A program made the translations under genes and the position numbers. Positions 2,955-51,621 of a DNA stretch of 64,000 bases are shown here, in pieces. How positions within the stretch are numbered: the first letter of the stretch is position 1; each line of letters starts with the position of its first letter. Source of the DNA: Eledone cirrhosa (taxonomy: Eukaryota); NCBI GenBank assembly GCA_964016885.1, contig OZ024744.1, positions 42,904,001 through 42,968,000 on the forward strand. The letters are read 5' to 3'. The notes beneath the pieces were generated by a model. The model searched no databases, was not told the origin of the DNA, and worked only from the letters and a program-made list of their open reading frames with translations.

Positions 2955-3140
2955 TAATTGTTTCTACTTTTGGCACAAGGCCAACAATGACTGCAGTGTG
3001 TTACTAGTGCTTTATTTTATCAACTCCGTAAGGATGAAAGGCAAAGTTAACCTCAGCGGGATTTGAACTCAGACCATAAAGGGTCATAGCTCTATGCAGC
3101 CAAGCATGGTATCTGGCCCTCTACCAATACTGTCAATCCG
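2955..3140 (-). mobile_element. Octopus-type SINE
   Basis: Reverse complement matches the copy at 17211-17398 (aaggatgaaaggcaaagttaac...atttgaactcaga). Plus-strand fragments also at ~2660-2850. Confidence 0.65.
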
Positions 3141-4093: not shown

Positions 4094-4308
4094 CCCTTTA
4101 GCATATAAACCAGCTGTATCCAGCCAGAATTTTATCACTTCTTTCTGTTCAAACCGGCTGTAACTGGCTGCTCATACTGATGTTAAGGTATTGTTCTCAA
4201 AATAAATAATATCAAAATCTCATAGATTCCATATTATGTCAGATAATTCTGTGAGCCTTTACCACAAAAATATAATAGTATATATGGAATAATGTAAATG
4301 TTAAAGGG
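4094..4308. mobile_element. piggyBac-like MITE
   Basis: TTAA|ccctttagcat ... atgttaaaggg|TTAA. A partial second copy lies at ~4561-4700. Confidence 0.7.
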
Positions 4309-26704: not shown

Positions 26705-29297
26705 TGGCGTGATAGATGGACGGTCGTAAACAGAAAAGGCTTCCCTGGTGAGGAATGTACTTCCCAACATAACTTAGTTGTCAGCGACCTCACAGTCAGA
26801 ACTAGACGAACTTGGAAACAGAAGGCAACCTGGAGAAGAAATATCTGGAAGCTGAAAGATATTTTACTCAACGCCTATGACAGTAAAGAAGAACAGATAC
26901 AGACATTCAATGTAGAAGAGAACTGGGAGTTCCTAAAAAATAACTTACTAAAGGTGACGGACAAGATCTGTGGTTGGAGCAAGTCCACAGGGAGAAGGAG
27001 AGTGACTTGGTAGTGGAACAATAAGGAAGATGAGGCAGTTAAAGCTAAGAGACAGGCATGGAAAGAATGGAATAACGGAGGTAGCAGGGTACATTACATA
27101 GAGACCAGGAGGGAAGCTAGGTGACAAGTATACTTAGCTAGAGGGAAGCAGAGGATAGAAAATTCAAGCATGTTTTGCAATGTGAGGACCAGAAACAGGA
27201 TGTGTTCAAGATTGTGAGGCAGTGTGTCAGAGAGAATTGTGATGTCATTGGTGAGAAGTGTACCCGGAATGATAAAGGTGAGCTTGCCCTCACAAGTGCT
27301 GAGAAGAAAGCTGCGTGGAACAACCATTATGAAAGATTACTAAACGAGGAGAATGCATGGGAAAAAGAGACCCTACTCCAAGTGGACCCTATAGAGGGGC
27401 CAGCAGTACAAGTCAGCAGTAGAGTAGTAAGTAAGGCAATCAAAGATATGAAGACAGGGAAGGCAACTGGTCCATCGGGTATAGCTGCCGAGATGCTGAA
27501 GGCATCTGGGTCTGTAGGTCGCACCACAACCACACGAACGTTAACCAGGTAATACTAGGGAGTATCATACCAAAGGATTGGTGCAGCAGCATCATTGTCA
27601 ACTGCTACAAAGGTAAAGGCGATGCACTAGATAGAGGTAATATAGAGGTATGAAGCTGATGGACCAGGAGAGAGTTATAGCAGAGTTGATTAGGGACCGG
27701 GTGAAACTAGATGAGATGCAATTTGGGTGAAACGAGATGATATGCAATTTGGGTTTGTACCAGAAAAGGCACCACTGATGCCTTCTTCCTTGTGAGGCAG
27801 TTACAGGAAAAGTACCTAGCTAAAAGTAAGCCGCTCTACCTGGCATTCATCGATCTGGAAAAAGCTTTCAACAGAGTCCCTATAATCTGGTGGGCTCTTA
27901 GAAAATTAGGAGTAGATGAATGGCTTGTGAAATCTGTACAAGCAATGTATAGAGGAAGCAGTCAGCAAAGTTAGGGTTAGCAATGACTACAGCAAGGAAT
28001 TTAGTATATAGGTCGGTGTCCAGCCCGGAATTTAGTATACAGCCCTCTCCTGTTCAATATAGTTTTGCCGGAAATAACGGAGGAGTTTAAGACCGGATGC
28101 CCATGGGAACTCTTATATGCGGATGAGCTCGCACTTATAGCTGAATCCATGGTGGAACTAGAGAAGAAATTCCAAACATGGTAGCAGGGCCTAGAAAGAA
28201 AGAGTCTCAAAGTCAACCTGACAAAGACTAATGTTCTTGTAAGTAGACGAGAAAACATAACCCAGACCCCCTCGGGGAAATGGCCTTGCTCAGTATGTAG
28301 GAAAGGTGTAGGTAGGAACTCCATCCTCTGCCACAATTGCAAACAATGGGTACACAAGAGATGTAGTGGGATCTCAGGAAGTTTAACTAAGAATGTAGGC
28401 TTCACATGCAGTAGCTGTGCTGGGACAGCAAGCAGCAAACGACCGCAGGAGACAAGCACCACCAATCTCTGGGAAGGCTCTGTAGAAACAGTAGACAGCT
28501 TCTGCTACCTAGGTGACCGAATTAGCAACGGAGGTGGGTGTTCGGAAAGTACAATAACTAGGGTAAGAACGGGATGGAAGAAGTTCAGGGAACTACTGCC
28601 ACTGCTAACTGCAAAAGGCTTTTCCCTTAAAATGAAAGGCAGACTATATGATGCATGTATACGAACAGCAATGTTGCATGGTAGTGAGACCTGGGCGCTG
28701 AATGTAGAAGACTTGCGCAGATTAGAAAGAAACGAAGCTTGCATGCTAAGATGGATGTGTAATAGTAATATACGCGAACGGCAAAGCAAAAACTAATTGA
28801 GGGAGAGACTGAGCATAAGGGGAATCAAATGCTGGAGAGGAGGTCGCGTTGATAGGACTTGTGATGCATATGAAGGATGACATCTGCATAAAAAGGTGCA
28901 GAGCACTAGAAGTCGATGGAAGCCGAGGAGTAGGGAGACCCAAGAAGACCTGGGATGAGGTGAAAAAAGATGACCAATTACACCTCTCAAAGGTGATGAC
29001 ACGCAGTAATACAGAAAACCCGACTTCCCACAGGAACAAGTGGTTGTGGAGGTGCCACGGCAAAAAAGCATCCAGCCCACACCGTAAAGTGGACGCGTAG
29101 GCGCCTCGGAAAAAAAGCACCCAGCACTCACTGTAAATGAAGTTGGTGTTAGGAAGGGCATCCAGCTGTAGCAACCAAGCCAGAATCAATTCTTGTATGA
29201 GCATGACAAGGTCAGCTGACTGGACCCTGCCTACAACAGGACAACCCGTCTAACCCATGCTAGCGTGGAAGAACGGACGTAAAACGGTGATGATGAT
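26705..29297 (+). mobile_element. 5'-truncated RTE LINE with 3'UTR and (GAT)n tail
   Basis: EECTSQHNLVV, GKATGPSG, AFIDLEKAF, LLYADEL and Cys-rich insert; stops and frameshifts. Confidence 0.9.
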
Positions 29298-29360
29298 ACA
29301 TACATACATACATACATACATACATACATACATACATACATACATACATACATACATACA

Positions 29361-30486: not shown

Positions 30487-31422
30487 GTAGCAGCAGTACC
30501 CACCGTTGCCTGGGTAGGTAAAATAATATCTGCTTTGATGAAAAGGTGTTGATCTTAGCGACTGCGGGTTTCTTGAAAATCGATCGTAAGGTGTAGCAAA
30601 TGGCGAAATGTTGAGTGAAATCGTGTGGAATATGTGGGAGGTGGAAAAAATCGTATTTTGAAGTGTTAAACGGCTGCCACGCCGTCCCTGAACAAAAAAT
30701 GCAAAGTGTAAAGCTACTATAAGATGTGTAATGATAGGTTCTATCGTAGTATAAAAGTTGAACCAAATAAATTGATTTATGTGTGAGGTGGAGCCGAAGT
30801 TTCGAATTTGAACGAAATTGGTTGAAAAATGTGGGAGCTAGAGCCGACAAGGCGGACATTTGAGCGAAAAGGTGGTATTTTCGAATATTTAAGCGGCTGC
30901 CACGCCGTTCCTGAACAAAAAATCCAAAATGTAAAGCCACTTTAAGACGTGAAATAATCAGATCTAGCGTAGTGTAAAATTTGAAGAAAGTAGGTTGATT
31001 AATGTGGGAGCTAGAGCCGAAAAAGTGGAAATTTTAGTCTAAAAGTGGTATTTTTGAATATTTAAGCGGCTGCCACGCCGTCCCTGGACAACAAATGCAA
31101 AATATAAAGCCATTACAGGATGTGCAATGATAAATTCTATTTTGCTTTAAAATGTGAACGAAATCGGTGGCAAAATGTGGGAGCTAGAGCCAAAGATCTT
31201 ATTTTTCGATACCTAAAAAAAGGTCACCCCCCTATCGATTTTTATCTGCAGAATGACCCCGGAATAAAAAAAAAAGATCCGCTGATATATAGAAAACACT
31301 CCCCGATAACTAATCTATGAGGCTGTAAAGTTTCATGAAAATCGGTCCTAAGATGTAGGCCCCTATAGGTAATACACAAACACACAGACACACACATACT
31401 TAATTTTATATATATATACAGA
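30487..31422 (-). mobile_element. Non-autonomous canonical Helitron
   Basis: Minus strand: A|TCTGTATATATATATAAAATTAAG ... TACCCAGGCAACGGTGGGTA hairpin, CTGCTGCTAC|T (CTRR variant). Sits between A and T with no TSD; internal cggctgccacgccg repeat units. Confidence 0.85.
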
Positions 31423-31554
31423 TTTCCGGTTGTTTGGTTCGATAACTGGATGGTTGTTTATATATAATCAAAGCTCTTTCGTCATACATTTTGTGACTAG
31501 GTTTTTATTTTGTGTCTCTCTTTTGTTCTCTCCTACACCATCTTGTTTTTGTGT

Positions 31555-31968
31555 GTTGAAATCTGATCTTGCCCAATTACACCTCTCAAAGATGATGACA
31601 CAGGATCGAGACCTCTAGCATTACGCAGTAATACAGAAGACCTGACTTGCCACGGGTACAAGCCAAAGTTGCATATTGACAGAATGCCCCCACCCCACCC
31701 TCCCACTGTAAAGTGGTCATGTAGTTGTCACGACAAAAAGTATACGGTCTACACTGTAAAATGGTCGTGTAGGGCCGCGATAAAAAGCACCCAGTATTCA
31801 CTGTAAATGAGGTTGGTGTTAGGAAGGGCATCCAGCTGTAGAAATCAAACCAAAATCATTTCTGTATGAGCAAGACATGATCACCTGATCTGACATTGCC
31901 TACAACAGAACAACTCATCTAACCCATGCTAGCGTGGAAGAATGGTTGTAAAAAGTGATGATGATGAT
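31555..31968 (+). mobile_element. RTE LINE extreme 3' fragment
   Basis: LKSDLAQLHLSKMMT, shared 3'UTR and (GAT)n tail. Confidence 0.8.
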
Positions 31969-32070
31969 ATATATAAAATTTGTTTCTCTCCGCTACCGCT
32001 GGAACAAAAGAATGACGTTGTCATCTACCACGTGGTGTTTTATGAAGCTGTTAACTTGTAAATAAACTAA

Positions 32071-33116
32071 ACCAGATAGAAAAATGCGTACAGCAAAAAA
32101 AAGTAATATTGTTGGAATATAAACCTTTAAAAATACAGGACAAGAAACTAAAATAAAACTTTAAAAGAATAGGACAAGAAACTAAGATAAAACTTTAAAA
32201 GAATAGGACAAGAAACTAAGATAAAACTTTAAAGAATTGGACAAGAAATAAAAAATTTTACAATAATATTAGTGGCAAAATTTTTTTATTCGTTTCCTGT
32301 GCTATGCCCCAGTATCTTCTTGATTAGTGCATAATAATTGTCATGCTCTCATTGTGCGTTGCCCCTGAGCGGTTGGTTCTGGTTGGGGTTGGTTGGCTGA
32401 GCAGTTCTGCTCCGTCAGAATGACCATTGCAAGAAGAATTGGCCGATGCAGGTGCAGGTCTCCTCCAAGAATGCACTTCTGATCCCGCAACACCAGACGA
32501 AGATGGAGAAGACGACCGGGACAAGATGTCGACTCTGACCACCGACTACGGCACCTCCCTCAACCACCGGTCCTCCCTCCCTCTGTCCCGTCATCCCTCC
32601 AGTCCTCCTGCTCCCCCTTCCTGTACCAGAAAGCTGTGGCACGCATTCATCTGGACTGTCGGAGTTGAAATCAAGGACAAGATGCAAGGAGAAGATGGAC
32701 GGGTTGGTCAACATCAAGGATGAACGGGACGACAAGACCGTCCGCTGCTGCTCAAGATCTGTGCTCATGGACCCATGGGCCCATGGGTCCATTCACATTA
32801 TGCATGACACATGAGGCGTGTCGCCGAATGATGAAATAGGGGTATGGTTATGGCCCAATTGGTGTTCAAACCAGGATCAAATGATCCCCCCTTTCTGACG
32901 ACGACCTCTGAATGTGGAACTCGATTTTTTACCAATAAAAATTTTGCCACTAATATTATTGTAAATTTTTTTATTTCTTGTCCAATTCTTTAAAGTTTTA
33001 TCTTAGTTTCTTGTCCTATTCTTTTAAAGTTTTATTTTAGTTTTTTGTCCTGTATTTTTAAAGGTTTATATTCCAACAATATTACTTTTTTTGCTGTACG
33101 CATTTTTCTATCTGGT
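32071..33116. repeat. Long inverted repeats (~215 and ~180 bp) enclosing a GC-rich core
   Basis: accagatagaaaaatgcgtacagc...agtggcaaaatttt (32071-32285) is the reverse complement of 32937-33116. The left arm has one extra ~33-bp subrepeat. Confidence 0.9.
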
Positions 33117-33914
33117 GTACTATTTTTTAAGGCAATGCAAGCAACAACTATCTAATAATTAAATGATCATAGTGAATTACTGACAAGTGATTGACATTTT
33201 AAAGTTCTTTTGAATATAATTGCAATCTAGTTGAGGCAACTGGCTTAATGACAAAGCTAGTAAATCATGAATGCATTTGAGATGATTAGTGCATAATAGT
33301 GAATTGGTGAAACTTGTGCATTTCAATGGTGTTACAACAATAGATGTAAGTAGTAATACTTTATCATTTTAACTTTTTAGAATGGACAAAAACCCATGCA
33401 AAGAAATGACTTTGACTGCAGTGATTCTCTCCAATTTACTTACAAAGCAAAACGTGGTCAAATACCTTATCATCTCTGATAAAATGCCCATTGAATCACT
33501 GAAAATCGGATGCATGGAATTCCTCATAAAATGCACCTATGAATCGGAAGCCATCATAGGGAGTTGTTCACACTGGAAGACCATCACTTCATTTGTGACT
33601 TCATCAGTTATCTCCACGATTATCTCAGACACCCAATGCCATTGATGAGAGGTGATCCAATGTGTGAGCATGTAACTAATCTTATAGAAGTTGTTATCGA
33701 CCACCTGGCTTTTAGTGACATTTGACTGCTTTGACTGATTTGACTGATAATGATGTATTTTTAAAAAGTATGTGTACATTCTTGTTACTATTTTAAGGCA
33801 ATGCAAGCAACAACTATTTAATAAAATTTAAATTTAAAAATGACCATTGTGCATTACTAGTATGATGACATTTTATTAAGTCACAAAATTAGTCAGTCAG
33901 CCATAGAACAAGGA

Positions 33915-35296
33915 TCAGGTGGCAAAAACATTGGCAAAAATTTGTGTCAATGTAAGATTTCCAACATTGTTTAAATGAATCATATTTGAAGTCAGATTTG
34001 TCAAATTTTGACCAATTTTCAATGTTTTGAAGATTGGGCAAGTTCAATTTTTGAATCATTTCTTCATGCAGTAATTAAACTTTTCCAAACGAGAATTTCT
34101 CTTGCCCAAGTCATTTTTTATTTTCAATTACACTTTGTGGGCGTGGAATGACACCACTGTAGAAAATGGGTGTACAGTGGGGTTTTTCCGCTATTTTCTG
34201 TAGCCTTGCAAAGAGACTCTTCCCCTGTTTTTCCGGTTTTGTGCCTCGAATGGGCACTTTGTCCTTAATTTACAAATAAATGATTAATAAAAAGTACTTG
34301 GGCAAAAATTATTGTATTACTTTGCACAGCTTTGTAGTGCCAACGGTGCGACGAGGATTCAGATCATTAGAGCCGACATGAACCACCAATACTTTCACAA
34401 AAGGACAACAGATAACAATGTTGGCGATTAACATTACCTGGCCCTGACGGGCCCCAGGTATACAAAATATCTAAGTATTTTTGTTGGTATGATAAGTAAA
34501 TACATTTGAATTAATATTTTTATACCTTCTGGTCATTCGATTTCGCCACATTTCTAATTATTGAATCACCCACAATATACTTGAATTGTGGGTGATTTTT
34601 ATTCAAAAGTGCACGGACGACCATTAAACAACGGCCATGGAGATTTGTACCATTCCCATTAAATCCTCGCCCCCAAATTGGATTAGGGGTGTCCCCGACC
34701 AATTGTTGCTACAAATATTCAATAAATGAGCTAGATTCAAATGGTTTTTCCCTCAAAAAACGTTTTTTTACCGTTTTTTACTGGTTTTTAATGGTAAAAA
34801 AACCGTTTGTAACTTTTTTTGTAAACTTTTTCAAGTCTGGTAAAAAACGGTTTTTTAACCGTTTATTACTGGTTTTTTAATGGTAAAAAAACCGTTTGCA
34901 ACCCTAGTCACATGTACATACAGTCCCCGTGTCACGAAGTTTTGATGCCAGTAGAGGATCATTTTCGAATTTCATTGACAACAGTACCACCATGAGATCA
35001 AACTGGATTGATTCCCATTTGAAATCTCTCTCTTTGCAGAAAGTTGACAATCTATCAAAAAATAGCATTGTAAACTTTTATCAAATATGTATGGGATATG
35101 TTTACTTAAATGGGTCTTTTTCTGCCAAAATGTGGCAGAGTTGGTCATTTCTTCCATAAAATAGGGTCTTGATGTACTTATAAGCATGTTCAACTGTGAT
35201 GAATGAACATTCCAATAAATTCAGTGGACTGTTTAATTTGCTCATATTGGATAAAAACTGATGCTGCTGTCTACGACCTTTATATAGGATTGTCAT
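33915..35296 (-). CDS. Spliced NADAR (YbiA/DUF1768-family) + SGNH-like fusion gene; last exon frameshifted
   Basis: Exons 35296-35106, 35051-34922, 34708-34526, 34470-34321 and 34263-33915; all GT-AG and frame-preserving. NADAR motifs: FLSNM, TVEHAYKYIK, WESIQFDLM, MKFENDPLL..KLRDTG, LVGDTPNPIWGRG, GTNLHGRCLMVVR. SGNH motifs: IVGDSIIRNV, CIPGA, VVHVGSNDL, FYSGVIPR, D..HLN. Confidence 0.8.
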
Positions 35297-35485
35297 GTTT
35301 CTCTGTATCTGCAATGTGGGTATACAAAATAAGAATTATGATATTAACTTTTATTTAAAATCCCAAAAAATGCTGTGCATGAAAACTTCAAAAAGTTGCT
35401 CATACTAATTTTGTAAAAGATTTCAAGTCAATAATCAGAATGATCTGGTATAATTTTTATGCAGATAAATGACTAATTAGTATAA

Positions 35486-35552
35486 AGGGCCATCCAGATA
35501 TCATGTGGACACCGCGAACCAAAAATGGTCACATGATATCTGGATGGCTCCT
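35486..35552. mobile_element. Tiny palindromic Harbinger/PIF-like MITE
   Basis: agggccatccagatatcatgtg ... cacatgatatctggatggctcct. A related element lies at 44248-44371. Confidence 0.55.
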
Positions 35553-36455
35553 AAGCATCCACTCCACATGGCGGGGACATGGGTCATCATCGTGGAGCAC
35601 TCACCTATTTTTAAAATATTAGACTATGATAAATGAATTTAGTTAAACATACAATTTGAAATATATTAGATAATATTTAGTAGGTGAGCATTAACAACTG
35701 AATCTAAATGGTGCAATTACACCATTTGCATTTAGTTGAAAATTACATTTTAATTAGACATGACAATAAATGTGACAAATGTTACACAATACAAAGCAAA
35801 TGTCAATTTTCACATGCAAGTTTTTTTGAGGTTTTTTTTGATTTTTTCACACACAGCATTTTTGTCAATTTTCACATGCAAACTTTTTGGGGGATTTTTT
35901 TCACGCGCGCCATTTTTTTTTGATTTTTCACATTAATTTTTTCGGGGGATTGATTACAAATTTTATGTGCATTTTTTACAATTTTTCGCATGTATATTAT
36001 TTGTTTGCTTATGATGTGGCTTGCTTGTTGCTTGTTTTGTTTCACCTGATTTGACTGTTCATATTTATTTTAAAAATCCACCCCCAAGTCCAAGTTGTGA
36101 CCAAGAAATTTAATAGTAAAGAATTGCCAGTAAAGATGTGTAACTCCATTAGACATACATATAAATGTTTATAATATAAAATGTTACATTTTGGCAGACA
36201 ACAGATACATTGGATAGACCTACTGCATACTTCGGAACTATCCTCTGACACTGTAGCTTGACAAATGTAACAAATTTCCTGTAGTACTACATATAAATGA
36301 AATATTGCTCATGTTACAAAACAACAGTTACATTGGACAGACCTACTGCATACTTCGGCACTGTCCTCTGACACAGTTGCTTGACAAATGAAACAAATTT
36401 TTCATATAGTAGTACAGATTTTTATACTCTATATTATTTTAATGTATAATAGAGT

Positions 36456-39400
36456 TCACTTGGATGTGTAGGAAAGAGCATTCTGGAGTGATATTGGACC
36501 TATAGTTTTTTTAAAAAAAAGTAAAACAATATTTGGCAATTTAGGTGGAAATTTGGGGTGCCTTTTGGTTATGCACGTGTCACTAATTTCATCCCATTTG
36601 TCACCATCTTTGTGAATTAAACAAGTGTAATGACCTCCTGATGTGGAACCTAATGTGTGAACAATTGCTGATTGAAGTTGGAAATTGGTACCAAAAAACT
36701 GCTGGCGTTTTGAACTGAAATTCAATAAATCACAATGTATTTGAGTTTCTTGACCACTGGTTATGAGGAATCGGTTGATTGATACTACAAGGTAGTGCAT
36801 TGTGGGTGGGAAATCTCTCCTGATGGTTGTTTTGTGCTCTGTATTGGTGGTGCAGGTGGGTGTCACATTGTTTTATTATGGTGTCATTTGATACAAGTAA
36901 AGTACGAAACTGTTGAGGGCCTTGAATAGGATGCAATGTCAAGTCTGTTTGAATTTCTGGTGTTTTGTGAGTTTCGAGTCCACATCCAGGTCTATGTGTG
37001 CAAGTACAAATTTGATCATTCAAAAGTGGGCATTCATTTTCATGACTTTTAGTGCATCTTAGTGTTTCATTCACTTGAAATTGGAATATTTGCTGTGCAT
37101 TTGGTGGAAAATGTGGGTAGATATTTTTCCAAAAATCATGGGCACATTGCTGAGCACCATCATTAAATCTCCCCCCAATTAATCTTCGCAGAATTGAAAC
37201 ATCCCGATCCCCTGGTGTGACAATATTTGCTATTTCCTGAACAACTGGACTGAGTAATTGGGTAGACAACAAAGTTTCCCAAAGTTTGGGCAATTGGGCA
37301 ATAGCTTGAAGTGTGGAATTGGCAAAACAGGCATTTTCCTTATTTTGTAGTCTAATCATGGGAGTGAGCATGGAAATTGTAGCTAATTTAGGTTTTTTGG
37401 TAGGAGGAGCATATTCAGAAGGGTTGTCCACATTCAACATTCGCCTTGATAGTTTTTTTGGCATGCAAGATTCAGAAGCCATGCATGGTGGTTTATTTCT
37501 ACATGGTCCAAGTGGAGGCAATTTTGTTGTAGAACGCAATTTGTTGTACTCTTCCCAAGCATATTTGTCACACATGATCAGGGTTCGTGGGTCAAAATCT
37601 ATCAAATAGACATTGCAGAGTTTCCTAGCTCGTGAAAGTGCAACATAGGCCATTCCATCTGCGAACACCAGAGGACCAAGATCAGCAATGACCCCATCAA
37701 CACTTATTCCCTGTGATTTATGGATGGTGATGGCATAGGCAAGGCATAGGGGGAACTGTTTTCGTGTCACATACACACCAGGAGAGATTTCATAGTCTGC
37801 AGTCACCTTTTCTATTGAAATGTCATTGCCTATCATGTGATCAAATTCCACAATGATTTGTCCCATTTTCCCATCTTTTCCATTGACCATGCTTTGCACT
37901 GTTCCCATGACACCATTACATAGCCCCTTCACCAAATTAATGTTTCGTCTCAGCATTACTCTGGCCCCAACTCCAACTTGCAATTCAGTCTCAAGTCCAG
38001 CAGTGTCTGATGCCTTTTTTGGTTTGGAAAATTTGTTTGACTTTGACTTTTTTTTACGACCTTTCTGGTGCATTCCTGAGTCCTCAGCAATAACTACAAC
38101 TGTACTGATGTTGGCATGCTTAAGCATTTCCTTGTTGAATTCATCTACAGATTCATTGACAGGCAAAATACAGACAAATGTTTGACTAGGTAATGTGCAA
38201 AGTTGCATTAGTTTCTCAGTTGCCTCTCTCATTGTTGCCCTGCGATCTAGGAATAGGCAATGTTCACTCAAAGTCTTGATGTCCATGTCTGTAGGTGATC
38301 CTATTCTTATTCGACGCAACATTTCAGAATAGTTTTCACTGTCATATTTTTGCCGTATGTTTATAGTGAGCTCATCATAGTCGAAAGATTTCCACAGTGA
38401 CTGCCCACTTATTCCCAGACCAGTCCTTTTAGCATCATATGCAGAAATACTGGAAAAGACTGTTTTTTCATTTACTGGTGGAAGTTGAAGTAGATCGCCA
38501 AAAACCAGAATATTTATTTTTCCAAAAGGGCTGGTCATTTGACTCTGGCACCCAAAAATCTCCTCTACGCGCCTATGGATAAATGCCAACATCAGATGAC
38601 TGACCATACTTATTTCATCGATAATTATCAGACGGACATCCTCTAGAGTGGATCGCAAAATTTTGAGTTCACCACTTTCTAATTCCCTATATGATGGTGA
38701 CTTTTCATGTTGGACTGGGAGTTTCAAGAGCCTGTGCAAAGTGGTCCCCTTGATTTGGAAAGCAGCCATACCAGTTGGTGCAGAAATGACTACTGGGGCC
38801 CCATTTCTCTTGCAACAAATTTGAGTAACTTTGTCAGAAATTATATCAATGAGAAAACTTTTTCCTGTACCTCCTACACCAGAGACAAAGTTTAGAAATT
38901 GTGGGCAATCATCACATCTGCACCTTGGTAGTGGTTTTTCCGAATTCCAATGCAATTCCTGTTTTTCAATTGCTGATACAATTAGATTGTATATGGATCT
39001 TTGATCTGTATTAAGCTGTGTTTCTTTTTGTCTGTAGAGCAGTTTCATCTACATCTCGAATTTGGGGAACATCAATACCAGCCTCATCTCTTTCCTCCTT
39101 CTCCCCCCTTCTATCCGTCCTTCTCCGACCTCTCCCTCCTTTTCACCCTCCTTCTCCAACCTCTTCCCCATCTCAACTGCATCAGTGATTTTTTTCCTCA
39201 CATTTTGAAAATTCACCATATCTGGCAAATTGTTTGCACACAGATGAAAGGACTCTTCAAATGTTTTGCAGCCCCCCAACAAATCTTTGTCCTCATCGCG
39301 CCAGGGTTTGAACAGCATTAGAAGATTGTGGTAATAACGTTCTTTTGTGTCATTTTTGAGCTGTATATTTGGTGCTTTAACTACCCGCTCTTTTACACTA

Positions 39401-42400
39401 TGAAAATACCCCTTGTCATTGAGCAATTTCATTTTTGTAGCCACATCTTTGTCAACAGGTTTTTTTTGTGTCCTCTCATATTTGCTGGCAACTTCATATA
39501 AGGAGGAATCTTCCAGGAATTTTGGCCGGTTTTGTAAAAAGTTTCCACCATGTTCTCGTAGAACAAGTCCATTGAGTCTTCACTCAGTTCATCGAGATCA
39601 TTTTGAGATTTCAATCTGCGGCCGCGCCTACCGGGAATGTCTGCACCTACCCAAATAACATGATCTGATGACCCGTAAAAATGATGCCCCAAAAGTTTGT
39701 CAGCAGCTTCATACCCTCCTGTATCCCTTTTCCCAAGCAATTGCAGTCCAGCACTTTTGTATTTCCCATATTTTGTTTTGGAATGATCCAGATTCGCCCA
39801 CACTCCCTCAGCCTCATTTTTTTCAGCCTTAGTCTGATAGCAGGTGACATATCTATTCAAAATCATACTATTCTCACCAATGTATTGCACATCTATATTT
39901 GCTTGCCAGTAAACATGGATTGTAGTCATTTATGTACTTTTCTGATTCTTTTCTTTCCAATTGGTACAGTTTTTTTGCCCCATTACCATTTTTTCGTGAT
40001 TTGATACTTTCAGAAACTGAGAAAAATTGAAATTGCCCCACTGCACGTGCAAAACCAAAACGGCATTTTTACTCAAATTTTTCCCTCTCCCCACTATTCT
40101 CCAGCATGCTTTGGCACAAGTATGAACCGTCTAACGAGATTTGCCAAGTTTGGGCTGGCCACAGGGGATGGTAGCCGGCAAGTAATGCAGCGTTCAATAA
40201 ATTGCTTGATTTTTTCTTTATGATCTTTGTCAAAAATTACACTGTCCCGAACCCAGGCTTTAAGGTGAATGTGAGGGGCACCACGTTGTTGATACTCGAG
40301 TCGCCAAAAGTAATGAATAATTTCCCCAAATGGGCCTTTTTTATTTAAAATTACATCATGAAAAACAGCACTAAAACGATGGTGAAAGTACTCACTGACA
40401 GCCACAACATCATTTGCACAGAGATTCCCTATCGGCCTTGTTTCAACATTTGCAGTGTCTTTATTGAGTTTTTCCAAAAATTCCCTCAAGCCTGGCCAAA
40501 AGTATTCAGCACATGAAAGAGTGATAAACAAATGGGCAGGACCGAATTTCTCATCTATGGCATTCAAGTCGGAGCACTTGCGTTCCCAAAATGGTTTTGT
40601 TCCACGAACATTCGCCATCATTATTGACAAACCACTTTCCAATTGTTCATCATTGGCTTCCAATCTTTTATAAAATTGAGCAAGTGTCAATTTTGAACTT
40701 TTGAGTGATTTCATTACGGCATAAATGCCAGAATCTAGTGCTCTTTTGTCAGCCTTGTCCAAATTGTAGAGAATGTACTGAATGTCTCTACGAAACCGGG
40801 GGTCCTCATGTCTGAGTCTGTTTCTGATGAACATGTATGGCTTTACTCTACCATGGGGTCTGTTCATGTGCATCATTCCAAATTTTCCTTTAGGGAATAA
40901 GTGGGGGAAGCACATCAGATCCAGGTTTGGATCATTGTCCGGAAGAAGAGTACCTTCAACTCGTTTCATGCGAAACATTTCAAGGTCCTTTTGATTTGGG
41001 AGTGCAGGCTTGATTTGCTGTACAGTATGGTGTTCATAGACTGTTTCAGCACCAGTTTGTGTGAGAATGTGTGGAAAATTGATGGAAACATTTTCACCAG
41101 TGCATGTAACAATGTCCTCTAAATTTGTGGTTCTGTCTATCAAAATGTCATTGTAAATGTCATTGTTGTTTTTCAGCCACTCCAAGGCATCAAAGACATT
41201 TTGCATATTCACTAGCGATAGCCAAATTGTGCCCTTTTTAGTTGGAAGACTATCAACAATTATTTCAAATGCATCATTTTGATTCGATGGAAGTTTTTTC
41301 ATTACATGATTGATTGTGTTTTCTACTGGTAGTGGCATGTGAGTTGCTATTCCTTTAATAGCAGCTACTAGATCTGATGGTGCACCTTTGAAACGATAGG
41401 GTGACAATTTAATGACATTGATGAAGCATTTGTCCATTTGGATCAAAATCTGCTCATACATGTTCAACTTTGACAACACATTTGGAATTTTGACCACTTC
41501 TAGGCCATTGATTGAAGCCAATGATGGTATCGACTTTATGACAAGACTATTTCTACATGTAGAGCAAATCGTACATGGTAGAGAGTAGTTTTGTTGAATG
41601 GTTTCCAGGAGATAGAGATTTGTCAAAGTCCTCCCAGACTTTGAGTTTAGCATCTAATTCTCGTTGTTTGCAAATGTCACAGGAGTTGATTTTCATTTTT
41701 TGAATCTCTTTATTAAAATGTTTGATAATGGATGCAAAATTGGCCCTGATTGAGGATTCTGAATGCAAGCTCTCATTTTCATTTTCCACTATCTCATTCA
41801 AACGGTTTAGCAGATTGTTGGACATGTTTTGGGGATTTACTAGATCATCAAACATTGACCAATTTCCTTCCAAGATTGAAATGTCATAGGAGTCTAGCCA
41901 GACACAGACTGATCTCACTTTGTACACACATCTCAGAAGTGTACGGATGCGAGGAGAGTGAGGAGCCATACTTCGAAACAGTTCAAGTCCATTTGTGCAG
42001 TCAGACTGTCCTATGCAATAGATGTTGTCCCTATGGAATCATTTACACTGCTCAAAGATTTCCATTTTTTTCCGAATTTGGGACACAGTCAAATCAGGTG
42101 AAAGTTAATGTATGGCCTTGTGCATTCGTTTAGCTAGCTTTAGTCGTGCAGTGGGATCTGGGAAATTTGATGGGGGACCAAATTTGCACAATCTAGCCAA
42201 AGTCAGAAGTTCTGTACATTTTCTGCCATCAAAATCTTCCTGGTCACTTTGCTCACCCCCCTCTTTTTGTGCACCTGTCTCACTTTGCTCACCTCCATCA
42301 GTTGGCTCATCTACCCCTCTTTGTGAACATTTCTCACTTGGCTCATCCCCCCCTCTTTGTGCACCTCCCTCACTTGGCTCATCTCCCCCTCTTTGTGCAC

Positions 42401-43690
42401 CTTTCTCACTTGGCTCATCCCCCCCCTCTTTGTGCACATTTCTCACTTTGCTCACCTCCCTCTCCTTGTGCACCTCCCTCACTTGGCTCATCTCCCCCTC
42501 TTTGTGCACCTTTCTCACTTGGCTCATCCCCCCCCTCTTTGTGCACCTTTCTCACTTTGCTCACCTCCCTCACTTTGCTCATCACCATCTTTACACCTGC
42601 CCTCATTTGTTGGACAGTCATCAATCAGAAATTTGTGGTTTTCAAGTTGTGTTAGAGGAAAATAATCAACTGTACTTTTGGGGAATAGAAAGTGTTCATT
42701 TGTGAAAGTATGGTAAAATATTTCCCCCCAGTATGCAGTCAACCCCTCCTTCTTAGCTAATTTGATGTGTGCATAAACTGAAGCCATTGTTTTTTTCAAT
42801 TCATTAAACATGAAATTTCGAATTCCCTGTGCTTCTCTGTAGATTTTGGAAACTTTTTCAAGGCCCTGTTTGAATTTCTTCCTATACTGTGCCCGACTTT
42901 TTGGTTTTTCTTTTTTCGAAGCCAAATATGATTTTGTGAATTTGTGTAACATGATTTCCCTTTGCATGCGAATGTCTTTAAATCGTTGAATTCGTTTTTT
43001 TCTGTACAAAAATTTGTGTTTTTGTTATATCAACCGTGCATTATTAAAATGATAATGTGAAAAATATCTGGCATCTTTTTCTTTTCCTTCTTCTCCTGTT
43101 CTCAATCTGTGTGCTTTTTGATACAATGCCTGTTGACTTTTGCCCTCATCGCCTGCTCTCACTCTGTGCTCTTTTTGATTCAATGCATGCTGATTTTTGC
43201 CCTCATCACCTGCCCTCAGTCTGCGCACTTTTGATACGATGCCTCCTGACTTTTGCCCTCATCGCCTCTTCTCAGTCTATATGCTTTTTGCCATGCCTTA
43301 TTTTTAAATTTTGCTTCGTCTGATTGTCTTTTTTCTCTTATTTCTGCAGCTTTCCGTTGTCTGTACTCCCTATTCCTAATTGCAGTTTTTCTCCGTTTTT
43401 CATTCTCTTTATCAATGTTTTGATCTTTGTCAGTCTCATTGAATTCAAATTCAGGTCCAGGATTTAATTCGACCGATTATGAGTAATGATAAGATTAACG
43501 CGCGCGTTCTATATTTCTGATTGGAAATAGGATAATTTCGTTTTTTGGATTTGTAAAAACTGGCATGAATGTGAATTTGATCAGTCCAATTGCCCGATTT
43601 TAGTGAAAAGTTTTGATTCGAAATGGAAATACTCCATTTCCGTGCCATGGAAAAAATGAATAAGCCGATCAAAAAGCCGCGAAACATCAT
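36456..43690 (-). pseudogene. Helitron RepHel: N-terminal repeats, HUH Rep, PIF1 helicase, C-terminal USP (C19)-like peptidase; multiple frameshifts
   Basis: Rep: FITLSCAE, RLEYQQRGAPHIH, WQANIDVQY...RYVTCYQTK. PIF1: GVGGTGKS, APTGMAA, IIDEISMV, FGDLLQLPPV, QFPLCLAYAITIHKSQG, YVALSR. USP: LQNKENACFANSTLQ, QQCAHDF, AIVHTLGSTSGGHYTC, WDEISD. Confidence 0.9.
42250..42580 (-). repeat. ~36-bp coding minisatellite (GGDEPSEKGAQR) in the RepHel N-terminus
   Basis: About nine units of ctctttgtgcacct...cacttggctcatc-cccc; poly-C length variation breaks the frame. A separate 57-bp repeat (RLRAGDEGK...) lies at ~43070-43290. Confidence 0.85.
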
Positions 43691-45041
43691 TTTTAATTAA
43701 GCGAAATTAGTGGATGCAAATCTCAGAAAATATTGTACACTATTCGCACCTATCGCACTATTCGCACCTATCGGTACAAAAATATAGCGCACTATTCGCA
43801 CCTATCGGTACAAAAAATCGCACGACTGTTAATAATACTAGAAGTGCAAACTATCTGTTGAATACCTGGTATATGAAGAGCAACCGATACGATCGGTCGG
43901 CGATCGGTCTTGAAGAAGAATGAAGAATGAAGTGAAATTTTGGTCTGGTTGTTGTCATGGGTGTTTCGCAGAGATGCCGGCACGAACAAAGGTGTCAGTG
44001 ACACAAAGTTGTTCGCTTGAACAAAGGTGTCCGACAAAGGTGTCAGTCAGACAGTGTCACAGTCGGTGCGACAAAGCGATCGATGCGATTAAAAAAGATT
44101 TAACTCACATGTTTACCTATATTTTCGCAAACTATTGATAGATTGGTACAAAAAATAGCTTTGATAATAAACATAAATTTTTAACGAAGTATTTAAAAAG
44201 CATTTTAGCAGTGAAAAGTGAAGTAATGTTTTACACTGACGCAAGTAGGGCCGTTCAGAAATGACGTAGTCAATTAGGAGGAGGGGATTCGGCGATTTGA
44301 CTACATTTGACTAACGTAATCACAATCACAAGAGTTCCGCCGAAAAAAATTCGTCATTTCTGGATGACCCCGTAGAGAGAGAGAGACTCGTAATTACCTC
44401 CCCTTGTTATCTCGGGCCGATTCTTCTCATAGATGCATCAAATGCACACAGCGTCACGCTTACTACTCACTCACTTGAACACAAGATTTATCAGCAAACT
44501 TTGATTATAAACTTTTTCCCGCTGGACCAAATTTCTAGATTTTTAAGCCGAAAGATGCGTAATGATCAACTGTTCATGCTCATATAAGTTTTATCTCAGT
44601 TAAATAAAGTAGAGCCGCGCTGCACTGTCGTAAACAGACGATTGCCAACGAAAACACGACCACAACAATATTACTAAACGGACTACCGTCCGTTTAGGAT
44701 ATTAATAATATTATAATATTATATTATTTGTATTCACTCACACACACACACACATACACACATACACACACATATATATATATATTAAACAATAACAAAA
44801 GGCCAGACTGGAAAGTATGCTTTAAAATTTTAATTCGGTGAAATCACTATACAGATTTTGATGGCCCAATTCTATCTTCCAAATATGATGCAAAATAGGA
44901 TGATCTTATAGGGCAACCTTGACAATTGAACAGTTCTTTTTTACAGGCAGTCCCTGAATCGAATTTTCAATTTCCTATTCTCTTTTCCTTATCTTTCATA
45001 TGTTTGGGTTCAACGTAACCCTGTTATGTAATTCTGTCAAA

Positions 45042-45116
45042 GTTACCTGATGAGGTCGTCCTGGCTTGCATCATATTAGGATGATGGAGCTGGGCCATTG
45101 AAATATGTATAGTGAT
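45042..45116 (+). ncRNA. Type I hammerhead ribozyme with extended stem II
   Basis: gttac CUGAUGA ggtc...catcat attagg atgatg...ggccatt GAAA tatgta UA gtgat. Same core flanks as the 30118 motif; stem I contains GU pairs. Confidence 0.55.
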
Positions 45117-45877
45117 TGGGTACACAAGAGATGTAGTGGGATAGCAGGCAAACTAACAGGTAGGGAGAAATACGTATGCAGTAGATGTACAGGGAAATAT
45201 GACAGTAGAAGTCGCATTGATAGACACAGTTTTCAAATACAGGTGGGTGCTATAAAAGTGGTGGATAGCTTCCGGTATCTAGGTGATCAGATTAGCATGA
45301 GAGGGGGGGGGGGTTCCAAGGCCATAGTATCTAGAATAAGGACGGGTTGGAAGAAGTTTAGGGAGCTGCTTCCTCTGCTGACGAAGGGTTTCTCCCTGCG
45401 TATGAAAGGCCGGTTATATGATGCCTGTGTGAGGTGCGTGATGCTGCATGGTAGTGATACATGGGCAGCAACTGCAGAGGATCTGCGACGGCTGAAGAGA
45501 AATGAAGCAAGCCTGCTCCGCTGGATGTGTGATGTCAATGTACGTGAACGACCAAGCATAGATGAGTTGAGAAAGAAACTGGATATAAGAGGGATAAGTT
45601 GTGGTGTGCAGGAGAGAAGGCTGAGATGGTATGGACATGTGATGTGCATGGAGGATGACCGGTGGGTAAAGAAGTGCCAAGAAATGCCAGTAGAAGGAAG
45701 ACGCAGTAGAGGTAGACCATGAAAAACATGGGCAGAGGTGGTGAGAGCACACCTCAGATGGCTGAAGCTCACGCAGGAGATGACAAAGGACCGTGACAAG
45801 TGGAGAGATGCTGTGCTGAATAGGACCCGTCTCACCCTTACAAGCAGGGAAAATCAGGCGTAAAATGATGATGATGA
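45112..45877 (+). mobile_element. RTE LINE 3' fragment with (GAT)n tail
   Basis: WVHKRCSG, FRYLGD, MLHGSDTW, RLRWYGHV; same subfamily as 13160-15867. Confidence 0.9.
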
Positions 45878-46079
45878 TTTCACGAAATTGAAATTTACAG
45901 CATATCTTCCAGTTCGGCCTTCTGTTGTTTAATAAATACATTACTCTGTTCCTGCACCACCCACTTGATACCACATCTACGATGGATGACTTTGTTGAGT
46001 GCTTTTATTTATTTATTATATCATGGTTTACCAACCACAACCACCAGTTCTACTCATTGGTAATCTAAATAACTTAAAT

Positions 46080-47361: not shown

Positions 47362-49716
47362 TTAGGGAGAAGTGTTTAGACGGGGTCCGTATTTGTTAAT
47401 GAAGTAAGATTCCTTGCTGATGCGCTGGGTGTGGGTGGCATTATCTTTAAATTTGTAGAGGGGAAAGATTCTGAAGTTGGGATGATTTTGGGCGGCGCAG
47501 GTATCAATGTGTTCACTCAGTGGTATTTTCCTGTATTCCCGTATTTTAATTTGGGATCTATGGACAGTCATGCGTTGGCGGAGGCTGTTTTTGGTCTGGC
47601 CTATGTATTGTTCTCGACAACCTGAACAAGTTAATACATATATTAAATTTTCCGATGCACATGTGAAATTGTGTTTTACTATAAAACGTTGTCCATCTTT
47701 GAAATAGAATTCCGAACCCTCTATTAGGTTGATGCAAATGCCACAGTTGGGTCTATCGCATTTTTTTACTGTGGGTTTCGTTGTTGTGGTTGGCAGTACT
47801 TTGGCATGTGTCAAGATGTTTTTCATTGACTTGGATTGTCTTTTGCTCTTTATGATATCGTGTGTTCGTAGAATTTGGTTCATTCTATGGTCCTTTTTCA
47901 ATACAGGGATGTTCTGGAGGATGGTGTCAAAGGCCTCGTTGTTGAGGGGGTTGTGTGTGGAGATGTATGGAAGAGCTTTTAGTTTTGGTTGATTTACTTT
48001 AGGGTGTCTAAGGTCCTGGGTACTGAGTTTTAGGGCACGTTGGATTCCATTGTCAATTAGTGATGCAGGGTAGTCCCTGCCTATGAGTGTGTCCTTTAGT
48101 TCTTGTAGCCGTAAGTAGCAGATGTTTTTATTGGAGACTATAGTACAGATTCTCTTGGCTAAGTTGTAGGGAATATTAATTTTAACGTGTCTAGGGTGGC
48201 AAGAGTTGAAGGGGAGGTATTGCTTGGAGTCTGTGGGCTTGTAGTATATGTCTGTTTCTATTTTTTTGTTATGGATCTTAATGAGGATGTCGAGGAAGGG
48301 GAGTTGTTGATGGCTGTATTCCATCGTGAAGTTAATATTTGTGTTGAGCCCATTTATAAGGGTGTGAAATTCTTTAAGTTTTTCGATGTTTTCGTGCCAA
48401 AGGATGAAGCAGTCATCTAGATATCGCTTCCAGTTCCTTTCAATGTGTAAGTGGAGGGTGTTTCCAAATTTGTTTAGGACTTTAGTGTAGAGGGTGATTT
48501 CCAGGTATCCCATGACTAGGTTGGCATACGTAGGGGCTGTTTTCGTTCCCATAGCGGTCCCAGATTTCTGCCTGTAGGGTTTGTTATTGAAAACGAAGTA
48601 ATTGTTCTCCAAGATAAATTTGAGTCCCTCTATCACGAATTCTTTTTTGATGCGTTGTGGGAGTTCATTGTGGAAGTTATCCAGCCAGAATTGGATAGCT
48701 TCTATTCCTAGGTTGTGGGGGATGTTGGAGTATAGGTTGACTACATCGAACGTCACTAGTAGGGTTTGTTCAGAAAGTGGCATATTAGGGAGGTGATTGA
48801 GCATATGTAGGTCGTCCCTTATATAGCTTTTGATGTGCTTGAGGAAGGGTTTGAGAAGGGTATCAATGAAGTTGCTAAGACGGTGCGTTTCGCAAGCGGG
48901 GCCTGCTATTATAGGTCTTAATTTGAGATCATTGGGTGAGGGGACATTGATGACTATGTCTGTGGCTTCCTTGCATGCCTTACTGATTGATTCGCTTTTA
49001 TGTACTTTAGGGATACCGTAGAAAAGGCTGGATTTACTTGTGAAGTCTGTGATGAAGCTGAATTCCTTGTTAGTGAGTCCTTCTTTGTATTGGTTGATTA
49101 GAGTTTTTAGGTTTCTCATAATTTTCTGTTGATTGTAGTGTTCAGCCTTTTCGTAGTATGTTTCGTTTTCCAAAGTGGAGAGCGCTAAGTTGATATAGAA
49201 TTCTGTCTCCATTAGGACTACTGTACTCCCTTTATCAGCCTCTTTAATTGTAATGGTTCTGTCGGTTTTTAATCTATTTAATTCTTCCCATTCTTTCTTG
49301 TTGAGGTTTGGCTTGTGTTTTTGTCTGTGCAAGTGTTGGTAAGGGAAGTTTGTGATGTGTTCACAGAATTCGTCCAGGATTTTATTTCTACCTTTTGAAG
49401 GGGTGTAATTGCTTCTATTTCTGGCTAATGATTCATCCTCATTGTACTGGTCGAATAGTTGTTCACTAAGTCGTAACTTTCTACAGAAGTCTGTGATGTC
49501 TTCCTTCATTTCATAGTAGTTAGGACGTAGTGGGGTCGGTGTGAATTTAAGACCTTTGGAGAGTAAGTTGATAAGGTTGGGTGTTGGTTCTGCACTAGTA
49601 AGATTGATAATTTTTATTACTATCGGTTTCTCCTCCCTGTCTTGTGTTATTTTGTTTGCCTGTATCTGTGTGCTGTGTCTAAAAAATGGTTGGGGTAGAG
49701 GGGTTGTCTGCTGATG
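47362..49716 (-). CDS. PLE family 1 reverse transcriptase + GIY-YIG endonuclease (ORF2), intact
   Basis: Frame open from 49716. Motifs INL...LLSKGLKFTPTP, EADKG, FYGIPKVHK, LRPII, FDVVNLYSNIP, GTAMG, RYLDD, LPFLD, CDRPNCGIC, NLIY..TCSGC..QYIGQT. Confidence 0.95.
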   Translation of the reverse strand, partial: HQQTTPLPQPFFRHSTQIQANKITQDREEKPIVIKIINLTSAEPTPNLINLLSKGLKFTPTPLRPNYYEMKEDITDFCRKLRLSEQLFDQYNEDESLARNRSNYTPSKGRNKILDEFCEHITNFPYQHLHRQKHKPNLNKKEWEELNRLKTDRTITIKEADKGSTVVLMETEFYINLALSTLENETYYEKAEHYNQQKIMRNLKTLINQYKEGLTNKEFSFITDFTSKSSLFYGIPKVHKSESISKACKEATDIVINVPSPNDLKLRPIIAGPACETHRLSNFIDTLLKPFLKHIKSYIRDDLHMLNHLPNMPLSEQTLLVTFDVVNLYSNIPHNLGIEAIQFWLDNFHNELPQRIKKEFVIEGLKFILENNYFVFNNKPYRQKSGTAMGTKTAPTYANLVMGYLEITLYTKVLNKFGNTLHLHIERNWKRYLDDCFILWHENIEKLKEFHTLINGLNTNINFTMEYSHQQLPFLDILIKIHNKKIETDIYYKPTDSKQYLPFNSCHPRHVKINIPYNLAKRICTIVSNKNICYLRLQELKDTLIGRDYPASLIDNGIQRALKLSTQDLRHPKVNQPKLKALPYISTHNPLNNEAFDTILQNIPVLKKDHRMNQILRTHDIIKSKRQSKSMKNILTHAKVLPTTTTKPTVKKCDRPNCGICINLIEGSEFYFKDGQRFIVKHNFTCASENLIYVLTCSGCREQYIGQTKNSLRQRMTVHRSQIKIREYRKIPLSEHIDTCAAQNHPNFRIFPLYKFKDNATHTQRISKESYFINKYGPRLNTSP

Positions 49717-50957
49717 TTAAGTGGTCTCCTGTGTTTGTTATATTCCTTGTTGTTGTAAAATGTGGTTCGGGTTGGTGGTTGTAGATTGAATGGGGTGTTC
49801 CTGTACTGCGAGTATGGGTGTGTGTTTCTATGTGCCATGTTGTATTGTGGTGTTATAAGTGGCCTACGTTGTTGGTTGTATCGTGTGGTGTGGGTTTGTT
49901 GTGTATTGTGGAAGTGAGAGTTGAGAAAATGGTAATTACCTTGCTGTCCCCTTGAGGCGGGGAAGTTGTTGCATCTATCATGGCGGTGGTATCTTTTCCC
50001 TATGTTTGACGATGAGGAATCCGCGTAGTAGTTGAGTGATTTGGTATGGTGTCTCCTTGAAGGGGGAAAGTTGTAAATGTCATTCTGAGGGAGATGATTT
50101 CTTGGGTTTTTGTTCCTTCTTATGGTAGCGAGGTTGGGAAGTTCATCTTCGGTGTGGTGCTTCCTTCTTCGTTTGTTTGAGGCTTGGGGGTTTGAGAAGT
50201 TGTTGTGCGGTTCAGTTATGGGTTTTCCTATTTTTATGAACGGGTTATTGGAGGTGTAATCCGTTTGAAAAGTCGATTCATAGTGTAGGAACCAAGCGGC
50301 ACTTTTTTCCCAGCGTTGAAGGGATTTCAGTTCTTCTCTGTTGCAGTCCCCTTTCCATAATTTGGAGATCTTCTCTACCTTGGGGCCTTCAGTTTTGTTG
50401 TTGATTTCCAGGAGGATCTCTTCATCGATGGTTTTGATTTTTTCCTCATTTGTCTGGGCCCTCAGTTTAAGAAGTTCAATTTCTGTCTTCATTTTTTCCA
50501 ATGCCATTCTTTCCCTAAGGTGTCTTTGAGGTTCGGGTTCATTTGGAATGGACTTTATTTGTAGTTTACGGGGGAGAGTTAGAGGGGTTGAGTTAAGCCA
50601 TTTTTCATATATCTCTGCTTTGTTGTGATTTTGTATCATCTTCCAGAATGAGAACTTTCTGTCTCTGAGGGATTTGTTCCATTTTGGAATTGTTCGAATT
50701 TTCATTTTGTGTGAATCAATCTCACATGGTTCTTCGTTGGTTTTTCCTGGGTTGGTAGTAGTGAACATAGTTTGGATAGTATCGCAAAGGTTTTGGAGTT
50801 TGTCGCCGATTTCGGAGGGTTTGTATCCGGTGGCGGTTTCCTTATTTGTGGAGTCAAGTTTGTCGACCAGCAAAGATAGGTTGGTGTTGATTTTCTTGAG
50901 TTCCTGTAGGATCTCTTCATTTGAGTTGATGAGGGTTGTATCCGTTTTTGTTGGCAT
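49647..50957 (-). CDS. PLE family 1 ORF1, predicted coiled-coil protein with an N/H/R-rich tail
   Basis: Uninterrupted frame (first ATG 50957, MPTKTDTT); heptad-like ERMALEKMKTEIELLKLRAQTNEEKIKTIDEEILLEI; overlaps ORF2 by 70 nt. Confidence 0.8.
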   Translation of the reverse strand: MPTKTDTTLINSNEEILQELKKINTNLSLLVDKLDSTNKETATGYKPSEIGDKLQNLCDTIQTMFTTTNPGKTNEEPCEIDSHKMKIRTIPKWNKSLRDRKFSFWKMIQNHNKAEIYEKWLNSTPLTLPRKLQIKSIPNEPEPQRHLRERMALEKMKTEIELLKLRAQTNEEKIKTIDEEILLEINNKTEGPKVEKISKLWKGDCNREELKSLQRWEKSAAWFLHYESTFQTDYTSNNPFIKIGKPITEPHNNFSNPQASNKRRRKHHTEDELPNLATIRRNKNPRNHLPQNDIYNFPPSRRHHTKSLNYYADSSSSNIGKRYHRHDRCNNFPASRGQQGNYHFLNSHFHNTQQTHTTRYNQQRRPLITPQYNMAHRNTHPYSQYRNTPFNLQPPTRTTFYNNKEYNKHRRPLNISRQPLYPNHFLDTAHRYRQTK

Positions 50958-51621
50958 TTTCTGTATCTCGTGTGAGGATATGATAGTTAAAAGAATAGAG
51001 GTGTAACACACAAGTTATTATATATTGGTAAACGGAATAGAAAATGCTGACAAATTGTTCACAGTTGAAAAATGGTTTAATTAGGAATAAAAGAGTATTA
51101 GTGATTGTATGGGTTAGTATTCAGTTGTGGTTTTAAGTTTTTAAGTTTTTACCGGTTGCGCATTTCTAAATGCTTTTCAAAAATAATTTTGAGATAGAGT
51201 GTCCGTGCTGTTTGCTCTGATCTGATTAGTTTTGGGAATTCTACCTGTTTTTATGTTTAAAAAATGGCTCCAGCGTTATTTTTGTGTTGCAAAAATGCTT
51301 GTGGTCAAAACAATTTTGATTGGTCGGTAGAGGTCATGTGAATGTAAAAAGTTGATTTTGCGCCAAGACTGTTTTTATGTTAAAATGTTAGAAAAGTGGC
51401 TCCAGCAAAAATTATTGGTCAAAACAATTTTGATTGGTCGGTAGAGGTCATGTGGATAAAAAATTGGTTTTGCGCCAAGATTGAGAAATGACTCTTTCAC
51501 AACAAATATGTGTGTGTGTGGGTGTGTGTGTGTGTGTGTGTGTGTGTAGTAGTAGTAGTAGTAAGGTGTTCGATGCTGCGACAATAGCCACCAGCGATGT
51601 GTGTCAAATGGCTATTAAGAT

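Follow-up and report, generated by a model that had tools for sequence, protein, structure and literature searches.

Why would a DNA transposon carry an enzyme predicted to remove ADP-ribose from nucleic acids? The question is raised by a 64,000-nucleotide stretch of the Eledone cirrhosa genome (assembly GCA_964016885.1, contig OZ024744.1, positions 42,904,001 to 42,968,000; hereafter, the window), where a Helitron holds a Rep-helicase (RepHel) gene fused to a ubiquitin-specific protease (USP) domain and a gene joining a NADAR domain to an SGNH hydrolase domain. The original prediction for this locus had taken USP and NADAR for two modification-erasing modules in a combination not known to have been described for Helitrons. 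We find that the element belongs to a known type, HLE2, with a known USP fusion, and we somewhat favour the view that the NADAR-SGNH gene encodes an optional, ADP-ribose-removing accessory enzyme that probably came from other mobile DNA. USP domains on HLE2 elements and the idea that deubiquitinases protect transposition proteins have already been published (PMC11417382, PMC9741609); a Helitron-borne NADAR was not found in the open literature (Repbase, subscription journals and bioRxiv supplements lay outside this search), and the NADAR-SGNH cargo is the new part.

An HLE2-type Helitron with a fused deubiquitinase

Ends common to other copies delimit a Helitron of HLE2 type, 12,628 bp long, at 32072-44699 on the minus strand, inserted at an A|T site without target duplication. 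The original prediction had recognized the element and set its extent at 31976-44700; the shared termini assign 31976-32071 to the flank, and 31976 was rejected as an element end. A domain search of the window returned, in minus-strand order, DUF6570, Helitron_like_N, PIF1 and UCH, confirming with the five-exon model described below that RepHel-USP and a spliced NADAR-SGNH gene are co-oriented. Assignment to HLE2 follows from a RepHel that combines an HUH Rep with a PIF1 helicase, from DUF6570 (E = 6.6e-16), a marker domain of HLE2 (PMC11417382), and from short asymmetric terminal inverted repeats (a 12-nt pair) with a 5' hairpin. The element departs from the T|T insertion that is usual but not universal in HLE2: its target is A|T and its ends are TC and CTRR. 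It is not a Helentron in the strict sense, as the USP follows the helicase and no AP endonuclease matched C-terminally.

The RepHel-USP gene (36456-43700, minus strand; start approximate) comprises N-terminal repeats, DUF6570, Rep (HUH, YxxxY), PIF1 helicase and USP. The window copy is dead, with RepHel-USP interrupted by frameshifts and stops and split across at least eight frames. A copy from the sister subfamily at 18.886 Mb of contig C13 (genome G000) reads through ~2412 codons with one stop, which indicates that RepHel-USP is a single intronless open reading frame (ORF) and excludes the frameshifts as introns. The USP/UCH domain (36456-37340, minus strand) has its Cys box at ~37328, its His box at ~36631 and an Asp, with a frameshift between the boxes in the window copy; in the C13 copy it scored 41 bits against a Pfam cut-off of 23.9 (PF00443). 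Cys, His and Asp were invariant in the 10 compared copies covering these residues. The ratio of non-synonymous to synonymous substitution rates (dN/dS) against the sister was 0.11-0.12 in Rep and 0.11-0.26 in the helicase; in USP it spanned 0.40-0.59 (excluding a copy with only 45 USP codons) and was 0.25 against the distant family. Within the window's subfamily the ratios scattered around 1. These comparisons indicate that the USP domain is under purifying selection with its catalytic triad kept. Among translated copies of the window's subfamily no intact RepHel was present, the longest frame being 1174 residues.

Domains of four kinds occurred in 41 of 77 RepHel homologues (UCH 14, OTU 17, Peptidase_C48 6, Herpes_teg_N 4), never two types together, and in those 14 homologues UCH stood at the same place as in the window element. 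UCH hardly occurs outside HLE2 and is enriched in its subgroups c and d (HELIANO, PMC11417382), which the window element resembles in DUF6570, Helitron_like_N, PIF1, a downstream UCH and short terminal inverted repeats, a likeness of domain content rather than of position in a RepHel tree. Erven et al. showed that VTD deubiquitinases of Helitrons are active and proposed in 2022 that they guard against degradation (PMC9741609); those Helentron VTD/OTU domains likewise lie inside the transposase ORF and are proposed to keep transposition proteins from degradation, whereas the window element has a USP fold of predicted activity and lacks an AP endonuclease.

The termini are consistent among copies: A|TCCT stood at 29 of the 31 listed 5' ends, with a 10-bp hairpin and then a 12-nt sub-terminal repeat next to it, and CTRR|T at 17 of 18 outer 3' ends. 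In the window, the 5' terminus (44674-44699, minus strand) reads TC and then the hairpin with a GGTA loop (z-score -4.5), and the adjoining sub-terminal inverted repeat (44663-44674, minus strand) has its partner ~30 nt from the 3' end, at ~32101-32112. In the sister subfamily a G-C pair of the stem is replaced by C-G, a compensatory change; the distant family has another stem with an identical loop. In all three families the 3' end is doubled as a 1-kb terminal foldback (32072-33115 in the window), in which inverted arms of ~215 bp enclose a GC-rich filler that differs family by family. The filler's orientation varies among copies, agreeing with the window in one of 26 other scored copies and being opposite in 25; these two orientations, together with an inverted hairpin loop at the 5' end of one copy, suggest that segments flip-flop while single strands are replicated or that the arms recombine with each other. 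We rejected the foldback as an independent miniature inverted-repeat transposable element, since its arms diverge family by family and contain the sub-terminal repeat (no search for solo copies was made). In the sister copy on C13, a 205-codon frame within the filler (L054:1470-2084) has a Cys/His pattern like that of a PHD finger (Atlas score 0.82, a lead only). As described, FoHeli3-5 and HLE2-reverse elements also have a hairpin before the left repeat, none at the 3' end, and a 3' repeat that lies 20-40 nt short of the end (PMC5148889; PMC11417382), and FoHeli members likewise deviate from the TT target (PMC5148889); the window element differs from them in its HLE1-like TC, CTRR and A|T features and in the 1-kb 3' foldback with invertible filler.

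The NADAR-SGNH gene and its relatives

The NADAR-SGNH gene (35296-33915, minus strand) was modelled as five exons separated by GT-AG introns of 54, 213, 55 and 57 nt. Exon 1 (35106-35296) carries the ATG and the first catalytic Glu and Lys; exon 2 (34922-35051) matches the NADAR profile; exon 3 (34526-34708) holds the second catalytic Glu, a WG motif and the SGNH GDS; exon 4 (34321-34470), whose 3' splice site is the least certain, holds SGNH blocks II and III; and exon 5 (33915-34263) ends with the DxxH block and the stop. Exons 1-3 matched Pfam NADAR in profile order (positions 5-67, 82-115 and 120-162; 18.1, 14.4 and 15.7 bits), each below the 35.1-bit cut-off but summing to 48. The second catalytic Glu is Gly in the window copy alone, and exon 5 of this copy is frameshifted. 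Spliced in the same way, the copy on contig C2 gave 335 open residues that matched positions 4-324 of a 341-position profile of intronless NADAR-SGNH proteins with 218 bits, an independent check of the splice model.

Both halves retain their expected catalytic motifs. The profile covers the whole NADAR domain across the three exons and, with the family profile, places it in the YbiA subfamily. Catalytic residues have been reported for the NADAR of P. nicotianae (PMC11543638), and its E43, K50 and E125 correspond to the kept E, K and E, with W89 and W133 kept as well; this half is predicted to hydrolyse base-linked ADP-ribose. In the SGNH half, which Pfam alone detects weakly (E = 0.013) and whose family profile matches 2hsj and 4c1b, the S, G, N, D and H residues are kept across copies in blocks I (GDS), II (G), III (GxND) and V (DxxH).

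Where might such a fusion come from? A HMMER search returned 19 proteins on short contigs, eight with NADAR followed by a whole or partial SGNH domain, and cluster membership added a ninth; these nine fusion proteins share the domain order of the element's gene, and the six aligned showed 25-33% identity. A word-index protein search with read-through exons 1-3 found no match among 540 candidates. A tree built from 37 NADAR domains (13 near-duplicates removed) grouped the element with six fusion proteins at support 89/87, below the mark for strong support, and placed P0089 elsewhere. The predicted fold of P0079 (predicted local distance difference test, pLDDT, 87; predicted template modelling score 0.88) matched YbiA, 8bau and SGNH esterases, and none of the PDB and viral matches listed covered both of its halves. 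The viral contigs searched gave one giant-virus NADAR, without SGNH, and no match for P0089 or RepHel. P0082 contains a PHD-like region, SGNH, NADAR and a zinc knuckle, an architecture that we take to be like ORF1 of a long interspersed nuclear element (LINE). In metagenome contig L077, a truncated member adjoins an 837-residue ORF with D-D-CxxH motifs that we presume to be transposase-like, as a lead only. In the Atlas this ORF fell with eukaryotic clusters (0.90-0.95), and with hAT-like clusters only at 0.77-0.78. The NADAR-SGNH gene of L077 lies between two unclassified long ORFs (1-948 and 2565-5078), and L078 and L079 have downstream DNA in common with L077 but not the ORF with transposase-like motifs. 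The fusion is apparently an undescribed family.

Parts of this arrangement have precedents. NADAR domains have been described in an Ectocarpus Gypsy Pol and an oyster Tx1 ORF1 (PMC12477816), and the gene in the window resembles these cases in being carried by a eukaryotic transposon and in being, like the YbiA-subfamily structures 2b3w and 8bau, of YbiA type with a Glu in the last strand; unlike those domains within ORF1 or Pol, it is a separate, intron-containing, SGNH-fused gene on a DNA transposon. Texim on fish Helitrons is, like it, a whole spliced SGNH hydrolase gene carried by a Helitron (PMC4021074), but by its description texim has 15 exons, lies upstream of the Helitron ORF and is expressed in testis, with no NADAR reported. 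Neither NADAR nor SGNH is among the 20 stably carried domains of HELIANO (Table S11, PMC11417382), an ORF-based scan that may miss spliced genes with short exons.

Copies, linkage and surroundings

As the original prediction had supposed, the NADAR-SGNH gene lies inside the element and is neither a neighbouring insertion nor a host locus. Exons 1-2 gave 10 matches at seven loci, every one within this element (93 of 93 candidates scored). At four of them (the window and the C2, C12 and C28 copies) RepHel and NADAR-SGNH are collinear within shared ends, so the two have moved as one unit; the three others have both ends and lack the RepHel core. No host donor gene was found, exon 1-2 matches being confined to the element and a genome-wide search with Pfam NADAR returning only the C12 copy.

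The gene is not a constant companion of RepHel, and the proposed linkage stood for those four loci only; the copies and families without it go some way towards the refutation that the original prediction had set for itself. A DNA search with RepHel gave 26 loci at 95% identity or above (137 candidates, 40 of them scored; 17 besides the window inspected), and NADAR exons were retained at four and missing at 22. One common deletion in seven RepHel copies removes USP and most of NADAR-SGNH, which suggests that these copies were mobilized in trans. SGNH exon 5 occurred in ~120 of 150 scored matches (297 candidates), and the 13 short copies examined were non-autonomous derivatives. The sister subfamily, 87% identical, lacks NADAR-SGNH, with a gap from 30 nt before the ATG to ~100 nt past the stop, and three copies of a family at 66% identity lacked it too within the 20 kb inspected. 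Scoring the best 40 of 674 candidates for the sister 3' region placed 40 of 40 loci at 99-100% identity, compared with 94-99% among copies of the window's subfamily, so the sister spread more recently. That the closest Helitrons spread without the gene argues that NADAR-SGNH is probably optional, and a single gain would be the simplest history. An open gene at a synonymous divergence of ~0.2-0.5 from the sister suggests that it was recently gained or has been under selection.

Several further features lie in and around the element. The window's subfamily has a second insert (33165-33830, minus strand), 0.67 kb with direct-repeat flanks of ~40 nt and a 96-codon frame of unassigned nature; this frame and the foldback filler account for the additional ORF-like pieces of the original prediction. 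Upstream of the NADAR gene lies a strong hairpin internal to the element (35484-35548, minus strand; z-score -9.4), which the sister subfamily lacks. After the USP stop (36187-36400) a ~90-nt unit with a Cys-rich peptide reading occurs in two to three copies, and these are kept in the sister. At C28:136.462-136.467 Mb (L030, L031) a sister-type non-autonomous element sits at an A|T site within NADAR-SGNH intron 2. Four sequencing runs, consisting of contigs that do not bear on expression, contained no spliced joints; in organisms B-D, small shares cover chiefly non-autonomous parts of the element. Outside the Helitron are a 173-bp tandem repeat of ~3 copies (30656-31194) and flanking LINE fragments ending in (GAT)n (28000-29300, 31550-31970 and 45100-45880), which we presume to be RTE-like. 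Farther on, 47362-51014 (minus strand) holds a 784-residue frame with reverse transcriptase and GIY-YIG-like domains and a 455-residue frame upstream, presumably a Penelope-like element.

Possible roles of the cargo

A counter-defence role for the cargo, as predicted from sequence, is plausible. RepHel would nick the TC end and displace one strand, and the fused USP, by analogy with other Helitron deubiquitinases, would probably strip ubiquitin from RepHel or the RepHel-DNA complex and slow its degradation. The NADAR half, a predicted N-glycosidase, might clear ADP-ribose off bases in the single-stranded DNA (ssDNA) or RNA of the element, and the SGNH half, a predicted esterase, might act on an acyl or an ester group, which could belong to the same substrate. 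The gene would then be advantageous under some conditions and dispensable for transposition.

Several observations weigh against the favoured reading of an optional accessory enzyme from other mobile DNA. The original prediction had proposed dN/dS on the cargo as a check, and USP behaved as a selected domain; NADAR-SGNH gave a ratio of non-synonymous to synonymous polymorphism (pN/pS) of 0.61 within the family (six copies; 40 non-synonymous to 17 synonymous changes; p = 0.065). Two pyrophosphate contacts of the NADAR domain are changed (R93 to Q, D130 to N). The choice of one gain over two losses is a parsimony argument on just three lineages, and the two long sister copies seen share one stop codon, so the master may lie outside the assembly. 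The 837-residue ORF of L077 had no match in Pfam, PDB or its own genome, and its single-sequence model (pLDDT 38) was unusable. An association of NADAR-SGNH with a Helitron was seen in no other species.

Some of these points would also fit a neutral passenger, a whole gene captured shortly before the burst of the subfamily and never useful to the element, which we regard as rather unlikely. Helitrons are known to capture genes (PMC6431247), and the losses at RepHel-bearing loci, the spread of the sister without the gene and a pN/pS not significantly below 1 are all expected of a passenger. Against it, the genome searches gave no donor, NADAR and SGNH are both typical of mobile elements, and the gene is whole, with ATG, stop and four introns, a kind of capture that is described as exceptionally rare (PMC6431247). 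Even a mere passenger would be such a rare whole-gene capture, with no donor visible.

A bolder version of the favoured reading, which we consider doubtful, makes NADAR-SGNH an anti-defence enzyme passed among eukaryotic mobile elements that erases an ester-decorated (acylated or ubiquitylated) ADP-ribose mark on transposon ssDNA in animal cells. The kit of the original prediction, in which USP and NADAR are jointly required to shield the RepHel-DNA intermediate against marking by the host with ubiquitin and ADP-ribose, seems to us improbable. The two domains do share one element with catalytic residues kept in both, guanine-ADP-ribose in ssDNA is a NADAR substrate (PMC11125620, PMC11543638), and DELTEX ligases place ester-linked ubiquitin on ADP-ribosylated nucleic acids; yet the sister and distant families have USP without NADAR, and the NADAR-SGNH profile matched none of the 77 RepHel homologues, a comparison in which fused domains are visible and separate neighbouring genes are not. 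The two-module account holds for a selected USP with its catalytic residues and leaves the SGNH half without a place. Least credible is an action on small molecules or membranes, with NADAR acting on soluble ADP-ribose derivatives or riboflavin-type intermediates and SGNH binding lipid as in LINE ORF1p: the nearest solved NADAR is E. coli YbiA, the phospholipid-binding ZfL2-1 ORF1 esterase is among the closest SGNH matches and viral NADARs have been proposed to favour soluble derivatives (PMC9503650), but YbiA-type NADARs also cleave guanine-ADP-ribose on DNA in vitro (PMC11125620) and it is hard to see why a DNA transposon would need targeting to membranes.

The roles of NADAR proteins in animals have been described as unclear (PMC11125620). 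A NADAR on a selfish element with an ssDNA stage offers a small expressible enzyme together with a concrete candidate substrate. If the reading of an ester-decorated mark were true, it would imply that invertebrates have a hidden defence by ADP-ribosylation against DNA transposons, and it would provide animal NADARs with a substrate.

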